From assembly GCA_023301565.1 (NCBI GenBank), contig JALZUO010000034.1:3621-67620 (forward strand): a stretch of DNA of 64,000 bases, given 5' to 3'. The notes under the pieces are model-generated. The model did not search any database, was not told the DNA's origin, and was given only the letters and a program-made list of their open reading frames with translations. Below, in pieces: positions 3,352-50,845 of this stretch. Numbering within the stretch: position 1 is the stretch's first letter; each line of letters begins with the position of its first letter. The translations under genes were made by a program, and so were the position numbers. The stretch is from Oligoflexales bacterium. GTDB taxonomy: Bacteria; Bdellovibrionota_B; Oligoflexia; Oligoflexales; JALZUQ01.

Positions 3352-3813
3352 GTGACCGAGTCACTACTTCGAAAAAACTGGGCGGGCTCTCTGGTCATTG
3401 GTTGTGACCATGCGGGCCCGCCCTTGGTTTCGTCCTTAAAGCTGCTTTTTGCGCCAGACATCCGAATTTTAGATGTTGGTACGCACGGCAGCGCTTCTGT
3501 GGATTACCCTGACTTCGCCAAGCAAGTGGCAGAACTTGTAAGCTCAGGTGAGTTTGACGCTGGTATTTTGATTTGTGGGTCTGGCATCGGCATGTCGATG
3601 GCAGCAAACAAAGCCAAAGGCGTGCGAGCTGCTTTGGTTTATGAGCCTGAATTGGCAATGCTTACGCGTCAGCATAACGATGCCAATGTGTTGTGTTTAG
3701 GTGCGCGGTTTACAAACCCTCTTGTTGCAACAGAGATAGTAAAGAATTTTTGGTTGACCTCTTTCGAAGGTGGTCGCCATCAAAATAGAGTAGATAAAAT
3801 CGCAGTTGATTAG
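3352..3813 (+). CDS. rpiB: Ribose-5-phosphate isomerase B
   Basis: Motifs GCDHAG, LICGSGIGMSMAANK, HNDANVLCLGAR. The GTG start directly follows the acpP stop and is the only start codon available in frame. Confidence 0.85.
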   Translation: MTESLLRKNWAGSLVIGCDHAGPPLVSSLKLLFAPDIRILDVGTHGSASVDYPDFAKQVAELVSSGEFDAGILICGSGIGMSMAANKAKGVRAALVYEPELAMLTRQHNDANVLCLGARFTNPLVATEIVKNFWLTSFEGGRHQNRVDKIAVD

Positions 3814-8505: not shown

Positions 8506-8634
8506 TGGGTCTGCCAAAGCTCGGTGAGACTGCTTGAGTTCCCTGCATCCTGGAGCGCAAGGCTTTTGGTTATTTGTTAAAATTAAGTATAATCTCCATA
8601 CTCTCTTGAATTGTTGATACCATTTGTAAAAGGA

Positions 8635-9882
8635 ATGCGTGTAATGAATAGAGTTCGTTTGGCTGGATTTTTCTTTTCTATGTTTTTTTTGATGTTTTGC
8701 ATCTCAAACTGTAAAACGCTTGAATCTTCTTCTGCACTCAGCGCATTCGGTGATCAGATAATGCTGGATGGGCAATCTGTCACTCCGCTTTATTTAAAAC
8801 ATGTCATCCGCGGCAACGACGATACGATAGGGGCTACTCCTGAGTCGCAACATGAGACAGCTCTTTTAGAGTTTGCCATCTATGATAAAAGCGGTGAGCT
8901 GTGGATGGACTATACCTTCTTCTCTCCTGCTATCCCGGAGGTCCGAAGACAAGTTGAAGTGGGCATCACCTCTAGATTTGGTATTAGGCAGGTTGCAAAT
9001 CAAAATTTTCTTGCTGAAATCCCTTCAATTCAAGGCGATATTTTATTTTATGAAAATCTACTAAGCAGTGAAATATTGCAAGGTACTTCGCGAAGTTTTG
9101 TGACCTGGGAAAATCGTCGCCGAACCAGGAAAATACGAAATGGATTTGCGAGTATGCAGCAGCTTGGCTTAGTAGATTCTTTTAAAGTTACCGATAGAGG
9201 TCCTGTTTTTCTGAAGTTTGTGCATGAAAAGTGGAGCCATCTAAACACACCTGAACAATACAGCAACCTAGTGTCTATCACGCCACCTGAGGAGTTTACG
9301 GCTGCAGATGGCGCGAGGGCTTTTAGGTTTCAACTGCAAGGTGCGGCTAGCCTTAGAACATCGGAGTATTATCATAAAAGTTATACTGCACGTATAAAGC
9401 TGGCTGGACGTGGCTATCAAAGCAAGCAGCTTGGTGGGAGTTTTGTCGCTCAAGCGGGATCTGTTTTTAATGCCAATGCAACTTTGTTTGGCGAAAAAGT
9501 TAAGGGAATTTACAAGGCAATTGACTTAAATCAGGTGAAAAATGGAATTTCTGATCAGATCGTTAGGCAACTAGTAAACTGGAGCTACCAAGTAAAGAAA
9601 ACTGAGAGCAATGTAGGTATGAGCAGCATGGTAGAAATTAAAGTAGATCCATTTATGTTAAGTATGGCAGCTCAAGGCAGAGCGGCACCAAACCAGGATC
9701 TAACCGGAAACGGGAATACAGCAGGTGTCTTTAGTACGGACGCATCTGAAAAAGCTAAAATGGCAAAAAGTTTTTATCCACCTGCAAATCAAACTCAAAG
9801 GCAGCGGTTGAACGAAACCAGCGCTTGGTATGAAGATATGCTTCGCAGGGACGAAGAGCGCTATCGAAGCCAGGTGCAGTAA
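8635..9882 (+). CDS. Hypothetical secreted protein or lipoprotein
   Basis: Hydrophobic signal sequence ending FCISNC, with no recognisable domain. The start is ambiguous (TTG 8611, ATG 8635 or ATG 8644). Confidence 0.5.
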   Translation: MRVMNRVRLAGFFFSMFFLMFCISNCKTLESSSALSAFGDQIMLDGQSVTPLYLKHVIRGNDDTIGATPESQHETALLEFAIYDKSGELWMDYTFFSPAIPEVRRQVEVGITSRFGIRQVANQNFLAEIPSIQGDILFYENLLSSEILQGTSRSFVTWENRRRTRKIRNGFASMQQLGLVDSFKVTDRGPVFLKFVHEKWSHLNTPEQYSNLVSITPPEEFTAADGARAFRFQLQGAASLRTSEYYHKSYTARIKLAGRGYQSKQLGGSFVAQAGSVFNANATLFGEKVKGIYKAIDLNQVKNGISDQIVRQLVNWSYQVKKTESNVGMSSMVEIKVDPFMLSMAAQGRAAPNQDLTGNGNTAGVFSTDASEKAKMAKSFYPPANQTQRQRLNETSAWYEDMLRRDEERYRSQVQ

Positions 9883-9889
9883 TAGATCT

Positions 9890-10900
9890 CTACGCCAGCA
9901 AATACGGCAAGCTTACATCAAAGCGGTAGTCTGTCCCCGAGTGGTTGTCGTTGAACTCTTCAAACCTGTGTGGGACAGAGCCTAGCTGCGCATGTAGCTG
10001 GCGCGCACCGTACAGAAGCGAGTACTGATCGCGGGTTCCGCATTCCACGTATATTTTTGGGACGCTTTTTAGGTTGGCTATTTTTGTCTGCAGGCGCTTT
10101 ACCGGATCGTGCTCTAGCCAGCGCTTCCATACGTCTTCTTTTACAGCGCCGCTATATAGATCTACCGGTATGTCAAAGCCGCACTCGGACTCTTGATTAG
10201 GCGAATAAAACCCAGATAGGCCCAGCACCATCATCGCCTCTAGCCAGTGGCCGGGTACTTTGGGTTTGGACCACGCAGCTTCTTGAAACTTTTGCACGCT
10301 ACCCTCAAACTTCATTAAAATATCGGATAGAGACGTGAGGTCTTTTCTCATGCTGATATCAAAAGCTGCATCACCCGAATGACAAGCAAAGCCTTCTAAA
10401 AGACCGGGGTAGTCTAGCCCTAAGCGAAAGGCACCAAAACCACCTGAGGATCGGCCCAGCGCATAGATTTTCGATTGCTCTGAAACAGAAGCGACATTTT
10501 TGGATAGATAAGAGACAAGATCTTTGGCAAGAAAGTCCCCGTGGTTACCAAAAAAACTAGAGTTCACATATTGAGATCCACCATAAGGGGTAAACATCTG
10601 CGGAAACACAGCGATGGCAGGAGGAATTACTTTTTCTTTGATCAGCCTGTCGATTCTCTGTGGAAAACTTTCTTTGAAAGCTCGCCAAGTCATCATCTCA
10701 AGGCCGCCGCCTAGCCAAGGAGCTAGTACAAGCAGCACGGGTAGGTTTGTATGTTGCCCAGGAGGCTTGTAAATACCTGTAAATACATGATTTTGACCCA
10801 TTTCAGCTTTAGCCAGGGAGGGGCTTTGGACTTTGAGTAGTTCAAGGCTACCGCCGATATCATAAAACTGTGGGAGTGTGCTAATCATAGGGATCTCCAT
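9890..10900 (-). CDS. Putative esterase (alpha/beta hydrolase, esterase-D/enterochelin-esterase-like)
   Basis: Nucleophile elbow GRSSGG, a downstream acidic residue and an HSG region. Length is typical of the putative-esterase family. Confidence 0.6.
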   Translation of the reverse strand: MEIPMISTLPQFYDIGGSLELLKVQSPSLAKAEMGQNHVFTGIYKPPGQHTNLPVLLVLAPWLGGGLEMMTWRAFKESFPQRIDRLIKEKVIPPAIAVFPQMFTPYGGSQYVNSSFFGNHGDFLAKDLVSYLSKNVASVSEQSKIYALGRSSGGFGAFRLGLDYPGLLEGFACHSGDAAFDISMRKDLTSLSDILMKFEGSVQKFQEAAWSKPKVPGHWLEAMMVLGLSGFYSPNQESECGFDIPVDLYSGAVKEDVWKRWLEHDPVKRLQTKIANLKSVPKIYVECGTRDQYSLLYGARQLHAQLGSVPHRFEEFNDNHSGTDYRFDVSLPYLLA

Positions 10901-26241: not shown

Positions 26242-26925
26242 CTACTTTAAAATATTTGCTATGTCGATTGTTTCCGGCACGTGATTAAAAGATTTTGCAA
26301 TAAGTTCCGTGGCTACATCTGCTACCTCGGACAGTGATGGGCCGTCAGCGCCTAATATTCTTTCCATGCTTGTGACGTGGTCACTAGAATACCCACAAGG
26401 GTTGAACCCTTGAAAAATTTCTAAGTTGTTTCGGATATTTATCGCAAATCCATGGGAAGACACACCCTCACTTACTCTGAACCCAAGAGCTGCGACCTTT
26501 TTATCGTCAACCCAAACTCCCGGCTTATCTCTGAAAACTTCAGAATCAATTTTAAACCGTTTAAGGGTGTCTTGAAGCGCCAACTCAATTTTAGTGACAA
26601 AGTCACGGGTTCCCAGAGCGTGCTTTTTAATATCGAAGATAGGGTAGCCTACCAATTGCCCAGGGTTGTGGGCAGTAAGCTTGCCGCCTCTCTCTGTTGA
26701 AACAATCTCGATCGAACGTTTTTCTAATTCATTCTGGCTCCATATAAGGTCCTGATCAGTTGCATTTTTTCCTAAGGTGATGGTGGGCAGGTGTTCTAGG
26801 ACAAGAAGAATGTCATAGTTTTCCTTTTTGACTATCTCAATGCAGTCGCGTTGAATCTTCAGGCCTTTTTTGTAAGAAATAGTCCCTAAAGGTGCTACAC
26901 ACAGTTTTCTTTTTGCTTCTATCAT
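26242..26925 (-). CDS. lipB: Lipoyl(octanoyl) transferase
   Basis: Motifs RGGKLTAHNPGQLVGYP, KKVAALGFRV (Lys), NPCGY (Cys). Confidence 0.9.
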   Translation of the reverse strand: MIEAKRKLCVAPLGTISYKKGLKIQRDCIEIVKKENYDILLVLEHLPTITLGKNATDQDLIWSQNELEKRSIEIVSTERGGKLTAHNPGQLVGYPIFDIKKHALGTRDFVTKIELALQDTLKRFKIDSEVFRDKPGVWVDDKKVAALGFRVSEGVSSHGFAINIRNNLEIFQGFNPCGYSSDHVTSMERILGADGPSLSEVADVATELIAKSFNHVPETIDIANILK

Positions 26926-28439
26926 TAATATATTTTAATCCGTTCATTGTTGTAATCTTGTTGGTTCAAGCTTTTTGCAAAAGGCTGTAAAGACTTTTTA
27001 TAAACTGTAACTTCTACGGTTTTACTTATGTTTTGCTTAGCTGTAAATTTTTTTGCGACTCTTTGTCTTTTTTTAGTCCGTCTGTTGAGTGTGTATTGCG
27101 CAATTTCATATGTGCCTGTAAACAAAGTCATCTTATTTTTTTTATCAAAAGAAAGATCAAAAGAGCTCCCGTTCATTGACTTTTCAACGGGTTCAATTCT
27201 TGCAAACTCCGTCTCCAAGTAGTCGTTTTGCTTTATGTTTAGTTTTACCGCAATATTTGCAAGTTTTTCTTCTGTAATTTCTTTGTTCGTCTCTACTTTT
27301 TTTCTTAATGCAAATGTGCCCAAATTCGCAACCTCTAAATTTGGTTCGTTGAAAAAATAAAGAAACGATTCTGAAGATCCTCGTGCGAATGGGTATCTGG
27401 TGTTTCGCTTGAATAGAGCAAACTTTTTATGATGTTTGCATTCCAGTTCCCAGGGCGGGCATTTTTGCAGCGCTGTAATTGCATTTACCACAAATTCATG
27501 TCTGCTTTTAGGCATGCCAACATAGTGTGGGTAAGACTTTTCATTTCCAGCAAAGGAAATATTGTGAGTTCCAGAGAATACCAGGTATTCTTCCCCAAAC
27601 TTTAGCTCTGCTGTATTGTTTAAAAAATAGAATTTATCGTATGTAGCATCTGTATTTCCTGCGGTAGGAGTCCCCCCTTTAAGAGAAAACAACTTGAGCT
27701 GTAGGAGCGGGCTTTTATCTTGAACATCAAGCGTCCGTCTAGTTCCGTGTAGTTCAAAGTTGTATGAGCCTTTTGGTAGAAGTAAAGTTTTTCCTATTTC
27801 AAAACTCTCTGTCACCTGAAGGCCAGTTAGGATTTTTGGAAAGTAGTAGCCAAAGGTTTTACCGCTAAACTTTTCTGGGGGCACAAGGGAAACTGGTTTA
27901 AGGCTGAGCTCTGTTAGCACTCCGTCAAAGGTGACTTTCTTAAGCCCAACGTAGCCATGCATTTTTTTTGGCGAGAACAAGGCAACTATTTTGTTTCCAA
28001 ATTTGCCTCGAGATGTTTTGCCAACCATATTTTTTGATTGATCGATTTCGCATTTTACAGACAGAGCTAACCTTGCCCGCGCATCTTGTACCGGCAACCT
28101 CATCAGCAGCGTTTTTAGGTTTAGGCTTGTCGTTTTATTTTTTTTTATCTCAAAAGATTCTGTATTACATGCTAACTCCAGGTGGTACCTTCCCGGGGGC
28201 AGCAAAAGGGGCTCAAGGAGGAATTTGCTTAGATGAACCCAGCGTGAGGCTTTTCCAGGTCCGCGTAATAGCGACCTGCTGTTTAAAAAGTGAACAGATT
28301 CTGGATTCTGACTAAGTAAGGCTATAGACCTCGGTACTTGTAGTACAAGAGTACCCTTTGAATTTCTTGGTGCACTACAGGCATTTAGAAATAAAACGGC
28401 AAATATAATCAGGCAAGTTGTAGACTGGGTTAACTTCAT
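26925..28439 (-). CDS. Hypothetical lipoprotein with repeated beta-sandwich-like modules
   Basis: Signal plus lipobox (VLFLNAC). Recurrent G-x-Y/H-x-hydrophobic-E motif (PPGRYHLEL, LPKGSYNFEL, FSGTHNISF, FTGTYEIAQY). Visibly AT-rich. The stop overlaps the lipB start (TAATG). Confidence 0.6.
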   Translation of the reverse strand: MKLTQSTTCLIIFAVLFLNACSAPRNSKGTLVLQVPRSIALLSQNPESVHFLNSRSLLRGPGKASRWVHLSKFLLEPLLLPPGRYHLELACNTESFEIKKNKTTSLNLKTLLMRLPVQDARARLALSVKCEIDQSKNMVGKTSRGKFGNKIVALFSPKKMHGYVGLKKVTFDGVLTELSLKPVSLVPPEKFSGKTFGYYFPKILTGLQVTESFEIGKTLLLPKGSYNFELHGTRRTLDVQDKSPLLQLKLFSLKGGTPTAGNTDATYDKFYFLNNTAELKFGEEYLVFSGTHNISFAGNEKSYPHYVGMPKSRHEFVVNAITALQKCPPWELECKHHKKFALFKRNTRYPFARGSSESFLYFFNEPNLEVANLGTFALRKKVETNKEITEEKLANIAVKLNIKQNDYLETEFARIEPVEKSMNGSSFDLSFDKKNKMTLFTGTYEIAQYTLNRRTKKRQRVAKKFTAKQNISKTVEVTVYKKSLQPFAKSLNQQDYNNERIKIY

Positions 28440-30216: not shown

Positions 30217-31067
30217 AGAGAGTCTGCGGCTTGCTCCCAAGCGCATATAGAACCGAGCAAAATACTCTAAGCCTCTTGATGCAAGCTAAATCTTTATTAG
30301 GCGGTTTTCCAAGAGTCAGGTTTGATGGTCGAGTAGCTCAAGACCACAAGAAGATTGTGTCAGAAATAAACGAAATAGGCTGGCATACCCCCGGGCTTTT
30401 GGAGAGTGAAGACTTTCAAAAAGCATATGAACTCGAAGACTTTCAATGTTTTCAAGAGTCAGGTCAATACTTTTCATCTGTTAAAGATCTTTTGAGTCCC
30501 CAGGTAGAGAGTTTGAACGGCTGCTACTTAGATGCTTTGGAGCTTTTTCGTAGCGAAATTGAGTTGCTAGAAAAAAGCGTGCGATTGATTTTAAATTTTC
30601 CAGTTGTGAGCGCAGGCAAGCAGTTCTTTTCATCTCCCCAAGAGATTCTACTTGAAGAAATTACGCTGCATCTAAAAAAGCCACTTAGAAAATCACCTCT
30701 AAAGTCCCAAGCTCACTTTATTGCAGCGCTAGATTCTTTTCGCAGGTTTGAAGATGCTTTTTACTCATCACTTTTTCTGCTATACCCTTTGCATAAAAAC
30801 CTGGAATCTACCAGGCGGTTTGGTCCCTATAGCGATGGGGATGTCAACTTTTCTGACCTTGCAGAGTTCAGTAAATACGAGCTTTCTAAGCCAATATTAG
30901 CTTCTAGTTTTTCGCAGATACTAATGCTCCGTGTTGCCTTTTTAGGGAAGCTTGAGCAGGAAATTATCTATATTCCGCGGGTGCTTGCCGATCAAGAGCG
31001 CTTTGCGCCGAAAGACGGGTTTTGGATTGTTTCTGCAAAAGGGATTGAGGAGATCACTGCGTTATGA
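30213..31067 (+). CDS. Hypothetical protein
   Basis: ATGA overlap with the upstream ORF (translational coupling). No recognisable motif. Confidence 0.55.
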   Translation: MKRVCGLLPSAYRTEQNTLSLLMQAKSLLGGFPRVRFDGRVAQDHKKIVSEINEIGWHTPGLLESEDFQKAYELEDFQCFQESGQYFSSVKDLLSPQVESLNGCYLDALELFRSEIELLEKSVRLILNFPVVSAGKQFFSSPQEILLEEITLHLKKPLRKSPLKSQAHFIAALDSFRRFEDAFYSSLFLLYPLHKNLESTRRFGPYSDGDVNFSDLAEFSKYELSKPILASSFSQILMLRVAFLGKLEQEIIYIPRVLADQERFAPKDGFWIVSAKGIEEITAL

Positions 31068-32722
31068 CTAACCGTGGAGTACTCGATCTGAGTATGTGTC
31101 CGTCTAGCCTGTATTCATCACAGGGTATGCGGTGGCTAAAGCCTCGGCTGGCTGAGCTTGAAGGTGCCGAGTATGTGTTGATACATGCGCCAAAATCCTG
31201 TGGTGATCACTCTTCTAGCTGGATCAATTGGCTGGAAAATAAAGCTGACAGGCACCTTTTGCAAAAAGACCTAGGCGAGTTGCGTGGTCGACTGCGCGAA
31301 TTTTTTTCTCAGCGCAGCGTTATTGGTTTTGTTGAAGGGTCGGTAACGGGAAGTTTTTTTGACTTACTTCTTTTTTCACAGGCAATTCTAACAAAGTCCA
31401 CCAACTTCCATCTGGGGTTCCCGGCAGCAAAAGTCGGGACTTTTCCTGCATTAGGTGGGTTAGAGGTTTCGTCGATTAAAGGGGTTCGGGCCTTAGCGTG
31501 GGAAAAGTCTCCAACCACAGCGGAGTTGGTGAAAAAAAGAATAGTACTACACAACCCGTTTGCGAGTTTGGATTGGGACTTCCAGTCTTTTGTGCCTGAA
31601 TATAAGAATTCTGAAAAGAAAAAGTGGTTTGGGCAATTACGGCAAAGCAAGAGCAAAGATTTGCCAAATGAATTGGGTACTGACTCCTTATGGAGCCACA
31701 AATCGGCAATATATAGGAAAACAAAATTTTCGAAAGTGCATCAAGATGAGGGTGTTTATCAAAAGTTATTAGTCAGCCAGTTTTTTCAAAATAAATATCA
31801 GTCTTTTTTAAGCCGCTTTATTTCTCAGGAGCAAGATAGTGAGGATCGCAGGCCTATCTCAGTACAGGTAGCTGTAGATTCAGCCGCGATACCGCGTAGG
31901 TTTTTGAAACTATTTTTTGTTTCCCCCATGTGCAGGCAAGTATATTTTCATGCTGGCGATACTCAAACCTTATCTGAGAGCGTGTACTTTTTGCGAGAAA
32001 GGTACGACGAGAAAAGCTCTGGTGGTCAGTCGATTTGGAGAAAAAAAGCGTCTTTTTATGTCGGCTCAGACATCAACGAAAATATTCCTAACTTTATTTG
32101 GAGCTCATCCGGGCATTTTGTCGTTCAGCAAAACGGAGAACATGTTCAGTTTTATCACTTAGACCCGACCGGATCTTTGGTGGAGGTGATAGATTCATCT
32201 GAAAATCCCAAACAGCTTTTTTCTTTGCTTAAATCAATAGGTATCCAGAATATTCAGGTGCCGAATTTGATTGATGGCCTGCCGCTCACTGTGTTAGCTC
32301 AGTCTGCTGTGTTTCAGTCACTAAGCGAGCTGTCTCAAAACACGGGCCTGCCGTTCTCATTTTTTGTTAAACAGTTGAAGAGCCGTGAGTGGAAGCTTGC
32401 CGGGTCTTTGCGCCAGTGGTCAACTTTTTTGAACAGGCGTTTTTTGTATTTTAGTCACTTTAGAGATAATCCAAAGCTTGCCGATTTTGGTTTAGATGCT
32501 GCTCTTTTCGAAAAGGATTATGTGGACAATTTACGCCCCAAAAGTATTAGCGACGAAGAGGCCAGCCGCTGGAACCCGTATAGAATTGAAACGTGCGTTG
32601 TTAAAGATCTTGCCAAAAAAATTGGAAGAAAAATGAATCATAGCTATAAAGACCTGGGCTTACTTTCGATTGCTGCGGGGATACCGGTGGATTCTGGAAG
32701 GCTTATTCATGAGCTCTGGTAA
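31064..32722 (+). CDS. Hypothetical protein with a divergent crotonase (enoyl-CoA hydratase)-like N-terminal segment
   Basis: ATGA overlap with the upstream ORF. Residues ~85-135 (VIGFVEGSVTGSFFDLLLFSQAILTKSTNFHLGFPAAKVGTFPALGG) follow the crotonase-fold pattern but with a non-canonical oxyanion segment. The remaining ~380 aa are unassigned. Confidence 0.5.
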   Translation: MTNRGVLDLSMCPSSLYSSQGMRWLKPRLAELEGAEYVLIHAPKSCGDHSSSWINWLENKADRHLLQKDLGELRGRLREFFSQRSVIGFVEGSVTGSFFDLLLFSQAILTKSTNFHLGFPAAKVGTFPALGGLEVSSIKGVRALAWEKSPTTAELVKKRIVLHNPFASLDWDFQSFVPEYKNSEKKKWFGQLRQSKSKDLPNELGTDSLWSHKSAIYRKTKFSKVHQDEGVYQKLLVSQFFQNKYQSFLSRFISQEQDSEDRRPISVQVAVDSAAIPRRFLKLFFVSPMCRQVYFHAGDTQTLSESVYFLRERYDEKSSGGQSIWRKKASFYVGSDINENIPNFIWSSSGHFVVQQNGEHVQFYHLDPTGSLVEVIDSSENPKQLFSLLKSIGIQNIQVPNLIDGLPLTVLAQSAVFQSLSELSQNTGLPFSFFVKQLKSREWKLAGSLRQWSTFLNRRFLYFSHFRDNPKLADFGLDAALFEKDYVDNLRPKSISDEEASRWNPYRIETCVVKDLAKKIGRKMNHSYKDLGLLSIAAGIPVDSGRLIHELW

Positions 32723-34728: not shown

Positions 34729-35694
34729 TTGTATAAACCACCCATCAACATTACACCTGATATTCTTTCTATTTGCTCTAAGATTGAGAAATTACTAGGT
34801 AAATATGAGGGGCTCGGCTGCCCTCAGCCAAAGCCTCAACTTAGGCGTTCTCACAAAATAAAGACTATTTGGTCAACGGTATCAATAGAGGGAAACAACC
34901 TTTATGAACATCAAGTAGAAACGGTGCTTGATGGTAAAAAAGTGGTTGGCCCAGACAAAGACATCCTTGAAGTAAAGAATGCTTTTGCCTGCTACGAAGA
35001 ATCAAAGTCCATGTCGCCAACTCTAGAAAAAGACTTCTTAAAAGCTCACAGAATCATGATGAAAAACCTCATCAACGATGCAGGTAAGTATCGAAATAAA
35101 AACGTCGGAATTTTAGGCAAGGGCGGAGTGCGACACATCGCCCCAAAACCTACTCTTGTTCCAAAACTAATGTCTGACCTTTTTAATTTTACCCAGGAAA
35201 ATAAAAACCTAAGCCCACTTGTGTTGTCCTCTGTGATGCACTATGAAATTGAATTCATTCACCCCTTCCAAGACGGCAATGGCCGGATGGGGCGATTTTG
35301 GCAACACCTACATTTGATAAAGTATCACGCTGCTTTTGACTTTGTACCTGTTGAATCACTGATATATGAGAGTCAAAAACAATACTACGAGGCACTTGCT
35401 AAATCCGATAAGGCTGGCGAAGCAACGGTATTTGTCCTCTATATTCTTGAAAAGATACATCACGGCTTAGACCTCTTTATAGCCAACGCAAATCGAATCA
35501 AGCACACAACCGAAAGTAGGTTGGAGGAGGCTTCTCAAAAATTGGGAACGGAATGGTTCAGTCGAGGGGCTTACAACAAGCTTCATAGTCAGGTCTCTTC
35601 AGCGACTGCTACTAGAGATCTGAAGGTTGGCGTAGAGTCAGAATTACTTGAGAGTAAAGGAAGCCTAAGGCTTGCGAAGTACCGATTTAAGTAA
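34729..35694 (+). CDS. fic: Fic family protein (class II, built-in inhibitory helix, C-terminal winged-helix-like tail)
   Basis: Fic motif HPFQDGNGRMGR (nt 35260-35295). N-terminal inhibitory motif TVSIEG matching (S/T)xxxE(G/N) (nt 34876-34893). TTG start. Confidence 0.85.
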   Translation: MYKPPINITPDILSICSKIEKLLGKYEGLGCPQPKPQLRRSHKIKTIWSTVSIEGNNLYEHQVETVLDGKKVVGPDKDILEVKNAFACYEESKSMSPTLEKDFLKAHRIMMKNLINDAGKYRNKNVGILGKGGVRHIAPKPTLVPKLMSDLFNFTQENKNLSPLVLSSVMHYEIEFIHPFQDGNGRMGRFWQHLHLIKYHAAFDFVPVESLIYESQKQYYEALAKSDKAGEATVFVLYILEKIHHGLDLFIANANRIKHTTESRLEEASQKLGTEWFSRGAYNKLHSQVSSATATRDLKVGVESELLESKGSLRLAKYRFK

Positions 35695-39015: not shown

Positions 39016-39347
39016 GCTTTATCTTTGGGTGTCTTTCGGTAAAAGAACAAGCGGAACAGTCGCTAGCTTCCAGCCATTTTTTTCATGTAGGACTCTCTTT
39101 TTTTGGTTAAAAAAGTGTAGCTACTTTGAGGTCTTCTTCAAACACTCGTAACCATTGGAAGTAATTTCTTTCTTTCCATTGCCCCCGGAAATAATTGCCC
39201 AGAAACTTTAAAAAATTATCGAGGGGGAATCAACTATTACCTTTTTATAATTTATGTCTTTCTCCAGTTTGGTCGAACAGAGAGTACTATGGATAATCGC
39301 GCTTACTTTTTTAGAAGGTGCGTCAATTTTTGAGATTAGGAGTTATA

Positions 39348-40835
39348 ATGAAAAAGTTTAGAATTGCAACAAGCGCACTGCTGGCGATTTTCTTGACTGG
39401 AGGGTGTGGAGAAAACTCTCACTTAAGCTTAGAGAACCTTATTAGTGCAACGCAGGGAATTGAGCCAGAAGTTGCAGCGGTCGATCTAGACCTTTCTGCA
39501 GGGGTAGGACTAAACACCCCAACAAACCTAACCGGTGCTTGTTCACCAGTAGGGTCAGCAATTAGTATTGCTAGTCCGGATATGACTCCTAGCCCAGTGA
39601 GTGGGGCCTGCGGCAGTGGCGGAGTGTTTACCATTTCAACTTCCGTTGTATTTGACGGAACAGGTCAAAACGGTTCAAGCCCTGTTTTGGCTACTACGCT
39701 TACCAGTCCTGATGGGGTCACGGCGCAAGACATGGATACAACCGCCTTTGTTCCGGTTGCTGAAATCACTACAGATTTACAACCAGATGGTTCGTCAAAC
39801 TTAGGCCTATCTTTAACTGATGCTAACGGAGCGCCTTTGGCTCCAGGTGACACAGTCATGTTTACGGTGCGAGATAGTGCAACAGGTGCAGCAATCGAGA
39901 TTCTTACGGGAGATTACGGCCAACCTCTAACAGGTTATGCAACAGATGAAGCAGTTGCTGCTAATAGCATCCAAAGTTATATCACTTCTCCGGGAGACAA
40001 TATTACAGACGGTGGAGCGCTTGAATTTGATAAGCTCGCTTGGGCCAAAGCTACTGGCAACATTGGTGTTAATAAAGGTATCAAGCTTCAATTTGATCTA
40101 GCTGCTACTGATGCCTCTGCCGGAACGACTTCTATAACTGATAGCGCTACCATTGGTAAAGGTTTCTTGAAGTTAGACGGGGCACTTGGGGTGACTGTCG
40201 CCGCCAGTTCATTAAATGCTCCGTACAATTGCCCTGATAATACTCGTTTTGTAGCAGGAAACACGGCTGTATCAGAGCTTGTTGACTCTAGTATGGCAGA
40301 AACAAGTGAAGATGGGTTTACATGGGTATCAAAACCTTCTGTCGCTGTAGGCACTTCAACAGCTTTTTGTTCAGATGCACAGCCTGGCACAGTAAACAGT
40401 ACCTGGGGTAGAGTTGCATTAAAGGAGCCGTCCTTTGCTCCCGGTTCATTTGATGGGGCATCGTACTATGCGCTTCAAAAATTAGAGAGAGGAAGTCTTG
40501 GTAATTTTTACGCAGTAAGATCTTTCATTTTATCTGGAAATGCAAATAACCTAGATGTTACCAATACATTGGTAGATATAGAATCTCAAACTCGTACGCA
40601 GTCCCTTAATGGTACGACCTTCTCTAACATGTTTATTGAAGCAAATCCTGGTGTTGGTCTACCAGCAGCGGCAACGTTCAACCCGCCTTTTGACAACAAT
40701 AACAACAGCAGCATTGTTACGACTGAAACCCATGATTTCAATGGCGGCGAAGGCGTTTACCACATTCGAACCGAGCTTGGCGGTGGACCGCATTCTTCTG
40801 AGCAGGATATGTATCTGCTACTCATTAGTTTCTAG
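39348..40835 (+). CDS. Hypothetical surface lipoprotein, Thr/Ser/Gly/Ala-rich
   Basis: AGGAG lies 5 nt before ATG 39348. Signal plus lipobox (IFLTGGC). Low-complexity T/S/G/A-rich sequence without recognisable domains. The ORF extends to 39318. Confidence 0.6.
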   Translation: MKKFRIATSALLAIFLTGGCGENSHLSLENLISATQGIEPEVAAVDLDLSAGVGLNTPTNLTGACSPVGSAISIASPDMTPSPVSGACGSGGVFTISTSVVFDGTGQNGSSPVLATTLTSPDGVTAQDMDTTAFVPVAEITTDLQPDGSSNLGLSLTDANGAPLAPGDTVMFTVRDSATGAAIEILTGDYGQPLTGYATDEAVAANSIQSYITSPGDNITDGGALEFDKLAWAKATGNIGVNKGIKLQFDLAATDASAGTTSITDSATIGKGFLKLDGALGVTVAASSLNAPYNCPDNTRFVAGNTAVSELVDSSMAETSEDGFTWVSKPSVAVGTSTAFCSDAQPGTVNSTWGRVALKEPSFAPGSFDGASYYALQKLERGSLGNFYAVRSFILSGNANNLDVTNTLVDIESQTRTQSLNGTTFSNMFIEANPGVGLPAAATFNPPFDNNNNSSIVTTETHDFNGGEGVYHIRTELGGGPHSSEQDMYLLLISF

Positions 40836-45985: not shown

Positions 45986-46714
45986 ATGGCTTTTAGCAAT
46001 TTAAATCATCATCTCAGCCTCTCACAGTTGCCAGGCTGGTTTCTGGGGCTACTCATTTTTTTAGGTGGTTTCACGACATGGGCAAGCTCAGAAACAGTAA
46101 AACCTGCTGCATTTTTAGAGGTCGTCTGCAGCTCTAATGAGCAGGGGCCATTGGTGCTCTTTGATTGGGCAGCACATAAATTTATAAAGAAGAGCCAGTC
46201 AGATAATCTCAAGCCTTGCCTTAGCGGTCTTAAGGCCTGGCTGACTAAATACGAGCTAGATTGGATGTCTCTTGTAGGTTCTGAGCAAGACATTCTCAGC
46301 TGCCTTGTAAGCAATAGTTCTGGCTGCGGGGTATCACCCTCCGGGATTCAGTACCCAGAGCGAAGCCGCAAACAGGCAGCTCTCAGCAAAAAGAAAAGCA
46401 AAGGTGTGGTTTTTGAAGTACCAGGTTCAGTGTTAAAAAACCTAAAAAAACAAGGCTTTACAGTTCTTCTTCAGGACCAAAATAAGTGGCCGCTCAAAAG
46501 CAGACGGCAACTGGGGGCCGGAGTAGGGCTGTTTTTGCGTTGGGGCGAGCCTTTGCTAAAAAAGCATACAAACTGGGTTCGCGTGCCGCTGACGCATATA
46601 AAAAGTAATCTCTTTCAGCTAGACCGCAGCGTCTGGCTAGCTTTAAGAGGGGGGCTGCCTGAGATGGAAAAAAATGGCCGTATTTGGATAAGCGGGCCTG
46701 CTCCAAAACCTTGA
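45986..46714 (+). CDS. Hypothetical secreted or membrane-anchored protein
   Basis: N-terminal hydrophobic segment (GWFLGLLIFLGGFTTWA). No motif. Confidence 0.45.
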   Translation: MAFSNLNHHLSLSQLPGWFLGLLIFLGGFTTWASSETVKPAAFLEVVCSSNEQGPLVLFDWAAHKFIKKSQSDNLKPCLSGLKAWLTKYELDWMSLVGSEQDILSCLVSNSSGCGVSPSGIQYPERSRKQAALSKKKSKGVVFEVPGSVLKNLKKQGFTVLLQDQNKWPLKSRRQLGAGVGLFLRWGEPLLKKHTNWVRVPLTHIKSNLFQLDRSVWLALRGGLPEMEKNGRIWISGPAPKP

Positions 46715-47453: not shown

Positions 47454-47501
47454 TATTCTTTTCACAGTTTATCCCCATAGACTGATGTAAAAATAAACAA
47501 T

Positions 47502-47531
47502 CCCGTAAGCCTTCCAGCTACGGGGTTTTTT
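47502..47531 (+). terminator. Rho-independent terminator after rplT
   Basis: Stem CCCGTA(A)GC / GCTACGGG with a 6-nt loop, followed by GTTTTTTA. Confidence 0.7.
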
Positions 47532-47654
47532 ATGGTGCGTCTAAAATACAGACGGGACCTGTATGGAAAATAGTCAAAAAATTGTGGAAAAGTTATTTAG
47601 ACAATGAAGAGTCGAGACGCTTATCATGCACAGAATTAGAACGGTGTGCAAGCT

Positions 47655-47700
47655 TTGATCCCTGCTTTGAAACAAATATAATCAGTACATTGTTTCAAAG
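47655..47700 (+). promoter_or_regulatory. Predicted top6B promoter (TTGATC-16 nt-TATAAT) embedded in a perfect 11-bp inverted repeat CTTTGAAACAA-N14-TTGTTTCAAAG
   Basis: -35 at 47655-47660, consensus -10 at 47677-47682. Inverted-repeat arms at 47665-47675 and 47690-47700. The right arm abuts the RBS. Confidence 0.5.
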
Positions 47701-47710
47701 GAAAATTTGC

Positions 47711-49645
47711 ATGGCAAAAACAAAGACAAAAACACGTGCGCGTTCCGGGCGGATTACCAAAAGTAGTACGGCTGAATACTTTTCAAAAAACTTACAGCAA
47801 GTAGGTTTTTCATCTCCGACTAAAGCAGTTCTTACTACGTTAAAAGAAGCTGTCGATAACGCGCTTGATGCCTGCGAAGATCACGGCATATTGCCAGACC
47901 TTCGTATTGAAATAGAAAAGCTTGGCGCGGGCTCGCTAAAAAACACAGATCAAATACGGGTTCTTGTCAGTGATAACGGGCCGGGTATCGGCCCTGATGA
48001 TGTGCCAAGAGTTTTTGGTGAGTACCTTGCCTCTTCAAAGTTCGGACGTGGACGGTGTTCTCGAGGGCAGCAGGGTATTGGTATTTCTGCAGCGACAACC
48101 TGGGCTCAGCAAACAACTGCTACTGGTGCCCGGGTGATATCTAAAACATCGAGCATGCGTAAAGCTGTTTCTTATCTTGTTGAAGTTGATCTAAAAGGAA
48201 ACAAAGGCAGGATTAAAGAAAAAGAAACCGTAGAATGGGACCGAAAAAACGGTACCAGCGTCGAGTTTATTTTTGACGGCAGGTTGCAGTACAACGGAGA
48301 GGCTGGACTGCACGCCTTTATAAATGGAAATATTTTAGTAAACCCGCATATGAAGCTTGTTTATAAGCTTCCTGCCGGCGAAGAGGTAACAGTAGAGAGG
48401 GTAAGCGAAGAAATCCCTCGCATCCCCGAAGCTGTAGATCCTCACCCTCACACAATGAAACTAGGTGATTTTATAGGCCATGCAGGACTGTTTGGCCCGG
48501 ACAAAACAACTACTTGGTTAAAAAATGGTTTTTCAAGAGTGTCGCCTTCAGCCATTAAAGAGCTCGGGGGTATTCTTGGACCCGAAAAAGGAATCCTTAA
48601 TGGGAAGGTTAGCGCCCTTAAAGAGGCGCAGATTAAAAAGCTTTATACGTCTATCCAAAAAACCAGCCTTAAAGCTCCAGCAACTTCCAGTGTTTTAGCC
48701 GTGGGCGAAAGCAGCCTGGCAAAAAGCATCCGCCGACTTGGCGAGGTTGACTTTATTTCTGTGCACACAAGAAAGCCAACCATATGCGATTTCAAACCCG
48801 TTCAGGTCGAGGTTGCAATTGCTAGGCTTAAAGGTAGCAACTCCGAATCAGAGTCTAGTGTTTCGGTTATTCGTTTTGCAAACCGGGTTCCTTTGCAGTT
48901 TGATAAGGCTTCTTGCGCTATCGTAAAGTCGATTCAATCGGTTAACTGGAAAACTTACGGACTTAGGCAGAGCAAGGGAAGCTTGCCGCAAGGGTCTTTT
49001 ATTTTAGCGGTTAGCGTTGTCTCGCCTTTTATTAAGTTTAAGAATGCTTCGAAAGAAACCATCGATGCTTCAGATGAGCTGGTAGAAGAGCTTCGGAGGG
49101 GGTTGATGAAGGCCGGGCAGAAGCTCTCTCGCCACCTTAAGCGTGAGAAAAAAGCAGAGGAGCTGACCAATAAGATTCAGCACATAGAATCTTTTGCACC
49201 TATTCTCGTTAATATTCTTTGCAGAATCACAGAAGCACCAAATAAAAGAAAAGAAGCTGCGGCTGCCGGTCTGCAAAAAATTCTTGATCGAGACATGAAA
49301 AAAGCAAAGGTCCAATACGACGATGCTGCAGCAAATCTAGAGCAGCACCTAAGCTCGCAGCTTGAGGCCATGCCAGATGTCTTCAGAACCTATAAAGACC
49401 CAAAGAAGACAGTCGAGGAAGCGCAAGAAACTAAGCTGGGTGCAAAAGACGCTGAGATTGCAAAGCTGCAAGATGAAGCCGAAGAAAACGCAAACTCTTC
49501 TAAAACTAAAATAAAAAAGAAGTCTAAAGGCAAGAAGACAGCGAAGAAAAAAAACACTAAAAAAGTCGCTAAGAAAACAGCCAAAAAGAAGAAGACAGTT
49601 CGTAAAAAAGCTACGAAAAAAAGCAAAACGAAGAGAAGAAGGTAG
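47711..49645 (+). CDS. top6B: DNA topoisomerase VI subunit B (GHKL/Bergerat ATPase, H2TH, transducer) with a C-terminal polylysine tail
   Basis: Bergerat motifs EAVDNALDA (nt 47846-), DNGPGI (nt 47972-) and GQQGIGISAA (nt 48065-). An H2TH-like segment (LGDFIGHAG...FSRVSPSAIKEL) precedes a transducer-length region. AAGGAAAA RBS lies before ATG 47711. Confidence 0.85.
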   Translation: MAKTKTKTRARSGRITKSSTAEYFSKNLQQVGFSSPTKAVLTTLKEAVDNALDACEDHGILPDLRIEIEKLGAGSLKNTDQIRVLVSDNGPGIGPDDVPRVFGEYLASSKFGRGRCSRGQQGIGISAATTWAQQTTATGARVISKTSSMRKAVSYLVEVDLKGNKGRIKEKETVEWDRKNGTSVEFIFDGRLQYNGEAGLHAFINGNILVNPHMKLVYKLPAGEEVTVERVSEEIPRIPEAVDPHPHTMKLGDFIGHAGLFGPDKTTTWLKNGFSRVSPSAIKELGGILGPEKGILNGKVSALKEAQIKKLYTSIQKTSLKAPATSSVLAVGESSLAKSIRRLGEVDFISVHTRKPTICDFKPVQVEVAIARLKGSNSESESSVSVIRFANRVPLQFDKASCAIVKSIQSVNWKTYGLRQSKGSLPQGSFILAVSVVSPFIKFKNASKETIDASDELVEELRRGLMKAGQKLSRHLKREKKAEELTNKIQHIESFAPILVNILCRITEAPNKRKEAAAAGLQKILDRDMKKAKVQYDDAAANLEQHLSSQLEAMPDVFRTYKDPKKTVEEAQETKLGAKDAEIAKLQDEAEENANSSKTKIKKKSKGKKTAKKKNTKKVAKKTAKKKKTVRKKATKKSKTKRRR

Positions 49646-49652
49646 ATAACTC

Positions 49653-50816
49653 ATGGCAAGACTACAAACATCCAAAAAATCAAAAGATGAAATACCAAAG
49701 ATTAGCAAAGCCTTGTGTGAGAAGATGATTGCTGACCTGGAAAAGGCCAGAAGGCCTGTTCTTCAAGCAACCAAATGCTCGCTAGACAACTCTATTTATA
49801 GCCCTGGAAAAGGCTACCTCACGCCAGGACCCAAAAAAGTAAGTAGTGAGCTGAACGTAAGTTCGGTAAAGAAAATCTCGAGATCTATTTTTATGCTAGA
49901 GATTCTTCTTAGAAACATTGATACCGGCAGCGTAAACACAAAGCGTGAGCTTTACTACATGGCTAAAGGTGAAGTGAAGCACAATAAGGATCTTAGGGTT
50001 CTGGATTTTAAAGATCAGGACGAGTCGGACTCGATCGTAGATTTTTTGTGCGAGATGATCGAGTGTTACAGAGAAGACATGAACTGCTACGCAAACGACC
50101 GGGGTGGTCAAACCTTCTCGCAGTGTTTGGTTGTGCACGAAACTATGCCTGACGGCAAAAAAGCGGTGATTGATTTAAGTAAGCTCGGTACCTCGCCGTT
50201 TCAGCCAAAGAACAGGCCACAAAATCTAACTCTTAAGGCTAAAAAGAAAATTGATTTTTGTTTGGTTATTGAGTCTGAAGGTACCGCTAACACTTTGGTT
50301 TCAAATGGGATCTGCAAGAGGAATAACTGCATAGTTGTTGGCTCGCAAGGGGTTCCTTCGAATGCAGTGCGAGGCTGGGTCAAAAGGATTCAAGAGCAAC
50401 TAAAAGTACCTATCTACTTTTTTGGTGACTTGGATGCTTATACTATCCAAAATATTTTTCGTACTCTTAAGGCTGGCTCTGCAGCATCGCTCATCCGCAA
50501 TGCTGACTATAGCGCTCCAGAGGTTCGTTTTTTGGGCGTGCTTCCAGAGGACATCAAAAAGTATGATCTTGCTGATTACACGGTTAAAAGTGACAACGCT
50601 AGCGATCTTAGAGCTCTGAAGAAAGCAAAAGATATTTTAGCTAACGACCCGTTTTTCAAATCACCGAAAAATAAAAAGTTAGCTTCGATTTTGCATTGGC
50701 TGATTAAAGAAAAGAGGCGCTGCGAACAGCAGGCTTTGTTTACCGTAAATCCGCGGGATCCGATCATGCCAGAGAAAATTATTTTAGAGAAAATAAAAAA
50801 GAAAAGTTATATTTAA
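49653..50816 (+). CDS. top6A: DNA topoisomerase VI subunit A (Spo11-type 5Y-CAP plus Toprim)
   Basis: KRELYYMAKG with the catalytic-Tyr-type YY at aa 101-102. Toprim acidic motifs LVIESEG (aa 205-210) and FGDLDAY (DxD, aa 259-261). Starts 7 nt after the top6B stop. Confidence 0.85.
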   Translation: MARLQTSKKSKDEIPKISKALCEKMIADLEKARRPVLQATKCSLDNSIYSPGKGYLTPGPKKVSSELNVSSVKKISRSIFMLEILLRNIDTGSVNTKRELYYMAKGEVKHNKDLRVLDFKDQDESDSIVDFLCEMIECYREDMNCYANDRGGQTFSQCLVVHETMPDGKKAVIDLSKLGTSPFQPKNRPQNLTLKAKKKIDFCLVIESEGTANTLVSNGICKRNNCIVVGSQGVPSNAVRGWVKRIQEQLKVPIYFFGDLDAYTIQNIFRTLKAGSAASLIRNADYSAPEVRFLGVLPEDIKKYDLADYTVKSDNASDLRALKKAKDILANDPFFKSPKNKKLASILHWLIKEKRRCEQQALFTVNPRDPIMPEKIILEKIKKKSYI

Positions 50817-50819
50817 CCA

Positions 50820-50845
50820 TAGGGGCTCTAAGCCCCTATATTTTT
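50820..50845. terminator. Terminator hairpin between convergent top6A and the HAD hydrolase gene
   Basis: Perfect 8-bp stem TAGGGGCT/AGCCCCTA with a 3-nt loop, followed by TATTTTT. Confidence 0.7.

Follow-up and report, generated by a model that had tools for sequence, protein, structure and literature searches.

Does the gene pair at 47711–50816 in a 64,000 nucleotide (nt) stretch of an Oligoflexales bacterium genome (the window, i.e. the whole stretch analysed; positions 3,621 to 67,620 of contig JALZUO010000034.1, GenBank assembly GCA_023301565.1) encode a genuine DNA topoisomerase VI (Topo VI), and is it a resident of the chromosome or a recent arrival? Topo VI, which uses ATP to untangle DNA, is known mainly from archaea and plants. 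The two genes, top6B and top6A, lie on the forward strand, and from their sequences the reading that we favour, with a probability of roughly 0.85, is that they encode a working type IIB topoisomerase that has long resided on the chromosome of a Bdellovibrionota bacterium near Oligoflexales/Oligoflexus. A preliminary description of the window had already proposed a resident and probably functional enzyme, and this is supported by the flanking genes, the composition, the invariant catalytic residues and the presence of the pair in all 80 related loci compared.

Identification of both Topo VI subunits

The open reading frame (ORF) list and direct translation both gave two genes on the same strand separated by 7 nt, as first described. 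The upstream gene, top6B (47711–49645), has an ATG start codon with AAGGAAA ahead of it. Its product of 644 amino acids (aa) consists of GHKL ATPase, H2TH and transducer domains, followed by a stalk helix and one further helix, and ends in a basic tail that is predicted to be disordered. An in-frame TTG is present upstream of this ATG at 47582, but gene calling done independently on the source contig gave a 644 aa protein with the same start. The downstream gene, top6A (49653–50816), encodes a 387 aa protein with a winged-helix domain that includes the predicted catalytic tyrosine, followed by a Toprim domain. The GHKL motifs claimed earlier for the first product (EAVDNALDA at residue 46, DNGPGI at 88 and GQQGIGISAA at 119) and the RELYY (98–102), IESEG (206–210) and DLD (259–261) motifs claimed for the second were all recovered in the translations.

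Profile searches, one of the checks that had been proposed, matched both proteins at full length to Topo VI families. In Pfam, Top6B matched Topo-VIb_trans (PF09239) over the full length of the domain (E=6e-44) as well as HATPase_c (E=1e-09), and Top6A matched TOP6A-Spo11_Toprim (PF21180, E=2e-39) and TP6A_N (E=3e-14). The NCBIfam equivalog model for Topo VI B (NF003218) matched residues 11–546 of Top6B with 494 bits, well over its cut-off of 274. The best Topo VI A model, NF003335, matched residues 5–387 of Top6A with 386 bits, which is slightly under its narrow subfamily cut-off of 424.

Top6B aligned with the B subunits of Methanosarcina mazei (E=5e-82, residues 18–497) and Saccharolobus shibatae (E=2e-59). 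In the core of the GHKL (Bergerat) ATP-binding fold (47834–48100, aa 42–130), which includes E46, N50, D88–G92 and the glycine loop G119–A128, E46 and N50 align with E44 and N48 of the M. mazei protein. The H2TH domain, a feature specific to type IIB enzymes, is located between the GHKL and transducer domains, and the M. mazei alignment is unbroken through residues 245–320. The charge of the M. mazei DNA-contact residues in this domain is kept at two of three positions (R263 to K271 and K268 to R276) and lost at the third (K308 to S319). The transducer domain (48677–49171, aa 323–487) contains W413-K414-T415-Y416, which aligns with the WKxY motif, and a candidate switch lysine, K448, in the sequence NASKE. 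NASKE aligns with SAGKE of S. shibatae, in which the switch lysine is presumably K427.

The best match to Top6A among solved structures was the Methanocaldococcus jannaschii protein (E=2e-34, 33.5% identity), followed by those of S. shibatae and M. mazei, the last of these being a weak match (E=3e-18). The motifs are in register with the archaeal M. jannaschii Top6A (PDB 1D3Y) and S. shibatae Topo VI (PDB 2ZBK, 1MX0), which share approximately 27–34% identity with the window proteins. RELYY aligns with REAYY in M. jannaschii and RDLYY in S. shibatae, IESEG with IETSG, and DLD with DGD. Hence, R98, Y101 and Y102 in the TP6A_N winged-helix segment (49869–50084, aa 73–144) and E207, D259 and D261 in the Toprim domain (50256–50750, aa 202–366) occupy the catalytic columns, a test that the preliminary description had set out for Y101/Y102, E207 and D259/D261. 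Y102 (nt 49956–49958) is the predicted DNA-cleaving tyrosine, and E358, found in the Toprim domain in the sequence CEQQ, is a candidate partner of R98. That M. jannaschii provides the best Top6A match is consistent with the published position of one cluster of bacterial Topo VI-A sequences near Methanococcales (PMC11302465).

An alignment of 50 sequences was used to build an AlphaFold2 model of Top6B, in which the GHKL, H2TH and transducer regions were predicted with confidence (predicted local distance difference test, pLDDT, about 70–94). The model is helical at residues 251–317, has a long stalk helix at 455–507 and a further helix at 511–553, and is disordered from 560 to 644. When this model was used to search the PDB, the top 16 matches were all Topo VI-B structures (E 1e-35 to 6e-26), and the next was the GyrB ATPase (1e-08). 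The H2TH-like segment and transducer ascribed to the B subunit at the outset are thus borne out by the M. mazei alignment, the model and the PF09239 match. The window proteins share domain order and catalytic residues with M. mazei Topo VI (PDB 2Q2E, 9O0G, 9O8P), the fold alignment having 31% identity and TM-scores of about 0.6–0.7. However, the window Top6B does not have the immunoglobulin-like C-terminal domain of the M. mazei protein and instead has the extra helix at 511–553 and a lysine-rich tail. On this comparative evidence both proteins are assigned to Topo VI proper, and it is very probable, in our estimation, that the pair encodes a genuine, active Topo VI.

Conservation in the Bdellovibrionota

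When one genome per GTDB species was scanned, relatives of the pair were encoded in 343 stretches, and the best 80 of the 343 were used for comparison. All 80 came from genomes of Bdellovibrionota type. Oligoflexus tunisiensis, Pseudobacteriovorax, Bdellovibrio and Bacteriovorax were represented, as were many metagenome-assembled genomes (MAGs), and top6B was immediately upstream of top6A in every one of the 80. The preliminary description had Topo VI as only sporadic in bacteria, and this does not hold for the Bdellovibrionota, where the pair is clade-wide. Across these loci, identity to the window protein was 72–79% for Top6A and, by tblastn, 53–68% for Top6B (59–68% for loci with the full gene). 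Residues R98, Y101, Y102, E207, D259, D261 and E358 were invariant in the 81 Top6A sequences of the clade, and approximately 44% of Top6A columns were at least 98% conserved. In the 73 Top6B sequences, the glycine loop and NASKE, including the candidate switch lysine, were invariant and the E/N box and DNGPG were 99% conserved. The B-then-A order in all of the loci, the level of Top6A identity and the invariant catalytic residues fit a resident enzyme that is under selection.

A neighbour-joining tree of the combined A and B sequences, built within the clade, placed the window beside L001, an Oligoflexales MAG that is the closest genome, and near Oligoflexus and Pseudobacteriovorax; the Pseudobdellovibrionaceae grouped together. 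The agreement of this tree with the taxonomy is coarse, and the MAG labels are noisy. The deep placement of bacterial Topo VI was taken from the study of Allen and Maxwell (2024, PMC11302465), in which the bacterial proteins fall within the archaeal clade and form two clusters, attributed there to at least two transfers. In a library of representatives at 50% identity, the nearest full-length relatives were 53%, then 34%, then approximately 30% identical, and this drop indicates that the Bdellovibrionota clade is tight and isolated. Overall, the pair is likely to be a vertically inherited core gene of this clade.

Protein searches at E<=1e-10 found 2604 relatives of Top6A and at least 7812 of Top6B, and for many of them NCBI or JGI already uses the name 'DNA topoisomerase VI'. 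Among the distant relatives, proteins of 830–950 aa (P0169, P0173, P0175, P0179, P0180, P0191, P0206, P0209 and P0236) matched Top6A in two stretches, with the best match N-terminal in some and the Toprim part near residue 700–900 in others. These may be type IIB-like proteins of an unusual kind, for example fusions.

The arrangement of the related loci was also examined for further components. A conserved accessory partner gene was considered and rejected, as clustering of the ORFs from 81 loci revealed nothing widely shared beyond the B and A genes. Neighbours conserved in subsets of the loci, judged by eye, resembled an FKBP-type isomerase, a permease, citrate synthase, a UvrD-like helicase, ProC, RmuC and UppP. 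At locus L067, tblastn ran through a stop codon and gave the appearance of a B-A fusion. This was rejected because the stop is at 9998–10000 and top6A starts at 10001, with no gap between them.

Genomic setting of the pair

The genes for L35 and L20 (rpmI-rplT) are directly upstream of the pair, as originally described, and RNase Y, an OmpA-family protein and DnaK are encoded farther upstream. Downstream are genes for a HAD hydrolase, a dioxygenase, a glyoxalase II-like hydrolase, a methyltransferase and a histidine kinase. Ordinary chromosomal functions also fill the remainder of the window, among them RpiB, SHMT, NrdR, genes for riboflavin synthesis, a sigma factor, DapF, RsgA and PlsB, as well as PanC, LipB, PyrF, LpxC and a class II tRNA synthetase. 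The view of the flanks was extended on the 202 kb source contig by 10 kb beyond each end of the window (approximately 84 kb in total), which added further housekeeping genes, namely L13, S9, a bactofilin, DHQ synthase and MurB past one end and LysA, aspartokinase, TatA and an ABC-F protein past the other. The earlier claim that integrase, transposase and plasmid genes are missing from the vicinity holds across the whole of the ~84 kb, in which no phage genes were found either. No gyrase or Topo IV genes were present in the same ~84 kb. In the whole window, a search with Rfam at gathering thresholds and ARAGORN detected no regulatory RNA or tRNA.

The absence of a composition break was likewise upheld. 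The G+C content, third-position G+C content and codon usage of top6B and top6A are inside the spread of 52 background genes from the window, and the deviation in codon usage was larger than that of top6B in 46 of the 52 and larger than that of top6A in 44. The single local anomaly, a spike in AT-skew at 49–50 kb, arises from the lysine codons in the Top6B tail.

The pair had been credited with its own promoter and terminator. A likely intrinsic terminator, a hairpin plus U-run, is present after rplT (47490–47535, forward strand; -16.5 kcal/mol, z=-3.6 against shuffled sequences) and would separate the ribosomal protein genes from top6B. A second, with a GC-rich hairpin plus U-run directly after the top6A stop codon (50819–50839, forward strand; -14.3 kcal/mol, z=-3.7), is the likely terminator of the two-gene unit. 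A candidate promoter was found in the 257 nt gap before top6B, where 47598–47682 on the forward strand includes two sigma-70-like hexamer pairs (TAGACA-18-TATCAT and TTGATC-16-TATAAT). Hence, both terminators are likely, and the promoter of top6B is only plausible because the region contains eight promoter-like sites and shuffled sequence contains 5.4 +/- 2.1, so that the count is no higher than expected.

The sensor-loop region and C-terminal tail of Top6B

In M. mazei Top6B, the loop KGRR186-189 was reported to be a DNA-crossing sensor and to be essential for activity (PMC5922973). This segment aligns without gaps with Y194-N195-G196-E197 of the window protein, none of which is basic, a correspondence that depends on the alignment. 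In the aligned loop (48281–48307, aa 191–199, RLQYNGEAG), the only basic residue is R191, three residues upstream of YNGE. The clade consensus at this position is DGR[IV]QLNGE[AG]GL, with R191, Q193, G196 and G199 invariant, and basic residues are kept at the KGRR position in the M. mazei and S. shibatae proteins and in one haloarchaeal Top6B. Two of three basic residues in the stalk/WKxY region of M. mazei Top6B are also not conserved (K399 to N412 and R457 to Q470), and neighbouring stalk residues are basic.

The C-terminal tail of Top6B (49496–49642, aa 596–644) is of low complexity and is predicted to be disordered. Its 49 residues include 25 lysines and four arginines and no acidic residue, a composition like that of histone H1. 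The tail may supply non-specific DNA affinity. A similarly basic end was found in 41 of the 120 closest Top6B homologs, and in 58 of the 120 the tail was shorter than 30 residues. The total length of these homologs ranged from 547 to 715 aa, and some Top6B homolog tails reach about 180 aa. Both the DGRxQLNGE loop and the lysine-rich tail are quirks of this clade that were new to us.

Predicted mechanism

The mechanism outlined here is taken from work on archaeal Topo VI (PMC5922973, PMC13040014, PMC8837201) and applied to the domains, residues and B subunit fold found in the window proteins. Two A and two B subunits would assemble into an A2B2 complex, in which a gate segment of DNA would be bound by the A dimer. 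Each strand would be attacked by Y102, aided by Mg2+ held at E207, D259 and D261, and the result would be a transient double-strand break with 2 nt 5' overhangs. Binding of ATP at the GHKL domains, involving E46 as the general base, N50, D88 and the glycine loop, would cause the B subunits to dimerize around a second duplex. The transducer, via K448, WKxY and the stalk helix, would pass this signal to the A subunits, the second duplex would go through the break, and the break would be resealed. The predicted net activity is preferential decatenation together with relaxation, and in the cell the enzyme would unlink replicated chromosomes and relax supercoils. Topo VI is described as a preferential decatenase in PMC8837201.

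Relationship to the B. bacteriovorus enzyme and to Topo IV

Bdellovibrio bacteriovorus (Pseudobdellovibrionaceae, Bdellovibrionota) is in one of the 17 bacterial families reported to have Topo VI (Allen and Maxwell 2024, PMC11302465). A review of chromosome biology in this species lists Bd2864 as Topo VI, together with 'Top II (Bd2865)' and 'Top IV (Bd0005)' (PMC11318664). As Bd2865 adjoins Bd2864, it is very likely to be the B subunit. Topo VI in the Bdellovibrionota has thus already been published (PMC11302465, PMC11318664), and a finding of this kind is known. The enzyme encoded in the window is presumably the same as that of B. bacteriovorus, with which it shares the phylum, the adjacent two-gene layout and the same tight clade. 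The orthology is drawn through MAG loci labelled Bdellovibrio or Bdellovibrionia, in which Top6A is 73–76% identical to the window protein. Unlike B. bacteriovorus, the lineage of the window is near Oligoflexales/Oligoflexus, and the neighbourhood, with rpmI-rplT upstream, differs.

The names in use for these proteins complicate any comparison. The NCBIfam models NF003332-NF003337, with the exception of NF003335, and RefSeq records name Top6A 'DNA topoisomerase IV subunit A'. The name 'topoisomerase IV subunit A' is used even beside a gene named 'DNA topoisomerase VI subunit B' (L082, 3456–4547, and the plasmid matches described below). Because annotation sources use this name for Top6A, the review's 'Top IV' entry is probably an artefact of annotation, and a mix-up of IV and VI may explain both the 'Top IV (Bd0005)' and the 'Top II (Bd2865)' labels.

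Topo IV (ParC/ParE) is a functional analogue only of the window enzyme, the proposed job of each being ATP-dependent decatenation and relaxation by passage of one duplex through another. Topo IV belongs to type IIA, has a different fold organization with three gates and produces 4 nt overhangs. The architectures are not homologous, and the sequence match to the window proteins is limited to the common GHKL and Toprim modules. Among the bacteria with Topo VI, GyrA was found in all and ParC in only seven, and B. bacteriovorus was not one of the seven (PMC11302465, Supplementary Figure 6). Because B. bacteriovorus was without ParC in that study (Allen and Maxwell 2024, PMC11302465), we lean, by analogy, towards Topo VI being the main decatenase that replaces Topo IV in the genome examined here. 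A broader proposal would make Topo VI an ancestral, vertically inherited core enzyme of the Bdellovibrionota that replaced Topo IV as the sole dedicated decatenase and had its DNA sensing rewired, with KGRR changed to DGRxQLNGE and a lysine-rich tail added in many lineages. We put this forward tentatively and at less than even odds.

Alternative explanations

Several of the findings weigh against the view of the pair as a working, long-resident Topo VI. The score of Top6A against NF003335 is sub-threshold, and the non-basic residues at the KGRR position suggest that the coupling of DNA-crossing sensing to the ATPase may differ in this clade. In addition, flanking genes were shared only with the closest genome, L001. 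In favour of a resident pair, DnaK (76% identity), L35 (70%), L20 (67%) and RNase Y (55%) differ between L001 and the window to about the same degree as Top6A (79%) and Top6B (67%), or to a greater one. Elsewhere, the pair is found amid other housekeeping genes, with synteny kept inside sub-clades. Given that the synteny is limited in this way, the case for vertical descent rests on composition, conservation and the coarse tree with its noisy MAG labels. The same limited synteny, and the ultimately archaeal origin of bacterial Topo VI by transfer (PMC11302465), would also suit a recent horizontal gain on a mobile or integrated element, in a Topo VIII or plasmid scenario and outside the core genome. 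However, the pair was recovered at every one of the 80 related loci, next to housekeeping genes, has the base composition and codon usage of its host and lies in ~84 kb that contains no integrase, transposase, plasmid or phage genes. A search of a plasmid collection found no bacterial plasmid homolog, the only three matches being to large haloarchaeal replicons with 24–29% identity. As the B and A genes are separate, with a stop codon between them, and are thus unlike the fused Topo VIII, that identity was rejected on these grounds together. A recent gain is largely refuted and we consider it very improbable. The presence of a complete B subunit also led us to reject identity as a mini-A protein.

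The altered KGRR loop could also be accommodated if a Topo VI-like fold acted here as a DNA-breaking nuclease with no strand passage, as in a Spo11/TopoVIBL-like complex or a Wadjet JetD/MksG-like defence system. Toprim dimers resembling Top6A do serve as nucleases in Wadjet, MksBEFG and Gabija (PMC13040014), and weak JetD profile matches to the Toprim core were detected. However, the PADLOC JetD match reached 19.6 bits over residues 204–274, approximately 70 Toprim residues, compared with the 386 bits for Topo VI A. Top6B had no match in the PADLOC search, and JetABC or SMC-type genes are not among the neighbours of the pair (L35, L20, HAD hydrolase and dioxygenase). Identity as Wadjet JetD/MksG was therefore rejected. 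The meiotic Spo11/TopoVIB-like complex was also rejected, as the host is bacterial and the GHKL motifs are intact and invariant; with the switch lysine and WKxY likewise kept, the B subunit is unlike the degenerate meiotic B-like subunits (PMC5922973). The nuclease explanation is disfavoured, and of those considered it is the least probable. Topo VIII, mini-A and JetD-like proteins had been named in the preliminary description as the competing identities, and none of these was found. A third alternative accepts the pair as a real Topo VI and makes it a third type II topoisomerase beside gyrase and Topo IV, with a specialized job such as dealing with many chromosome copies during filamentous growth. 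The seven other Topo VI-bearing bacteria that also have ParC (PMC11302465) and the 'Top IV (Bd0005)' entry for B. bacteriovorus (PMC11318664) favour this. The entry is probably the annotation artefact described above, the classification by GyrA box gives no ParC for B. bacteriovorus (PMC11302465), and the pair is conserved very strongly, as would suit a non-redundant role. We regard a third enzyme as unlikely, and continue to favour a resident Topo VI that takes the place of Topo IV.

Other features of the window

In many bacteria infC is found ahead of rpmI-rplT, but here this position is occupied by a 242 aa ORF without a family match (45986–46714). Four large ORFs of 423–552 aa (8611–9882, 26925–28439, 31064–32722 and 39318–40835) had no Pfam match at E<=1e-5 and may encode lineage-specific proteins. 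One of them, the 505 aa ORF at 39318–40835, also had no NCBIfam match. A 321 aa Fic/DOC-domain protein is encoded at 34729–35694, between LpxC and a ComEC-like competence protein and 12 kb from the Topo VI pair. Of the genes in the window, only this one might be toxin-like.

Implications

With this pair, the Topo VI family gains a further well-supported member from bacteria, where the role of the enzyme remains unsettled (Allen and Maxwell 2024). The finding will not surprise a specialist, and the residual interest is in the apparent core-gene status of the pair in the Bdellovibrionota and in the loop and tail variants. The naming of Top6A as 'topoisomerase IV subunit A' is an annotation trap that can corrupt inventories of type II topoisomerases that are based on text. 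Models of DNA-crossing recognition may be tested with the natural variation seen here, in the loop that departs from KGRR and in the lysine-rich tail, which only some homologs have. Within the Bdellovibrionota, the pair looks to be clade-wide and conserved to the same degree as core housekeeping proteins. As B. bacteriovorus is genetically tractable, this phylum would be well suited to asking what Topo VI does in bacteria and whether it has replaced Topo IV.

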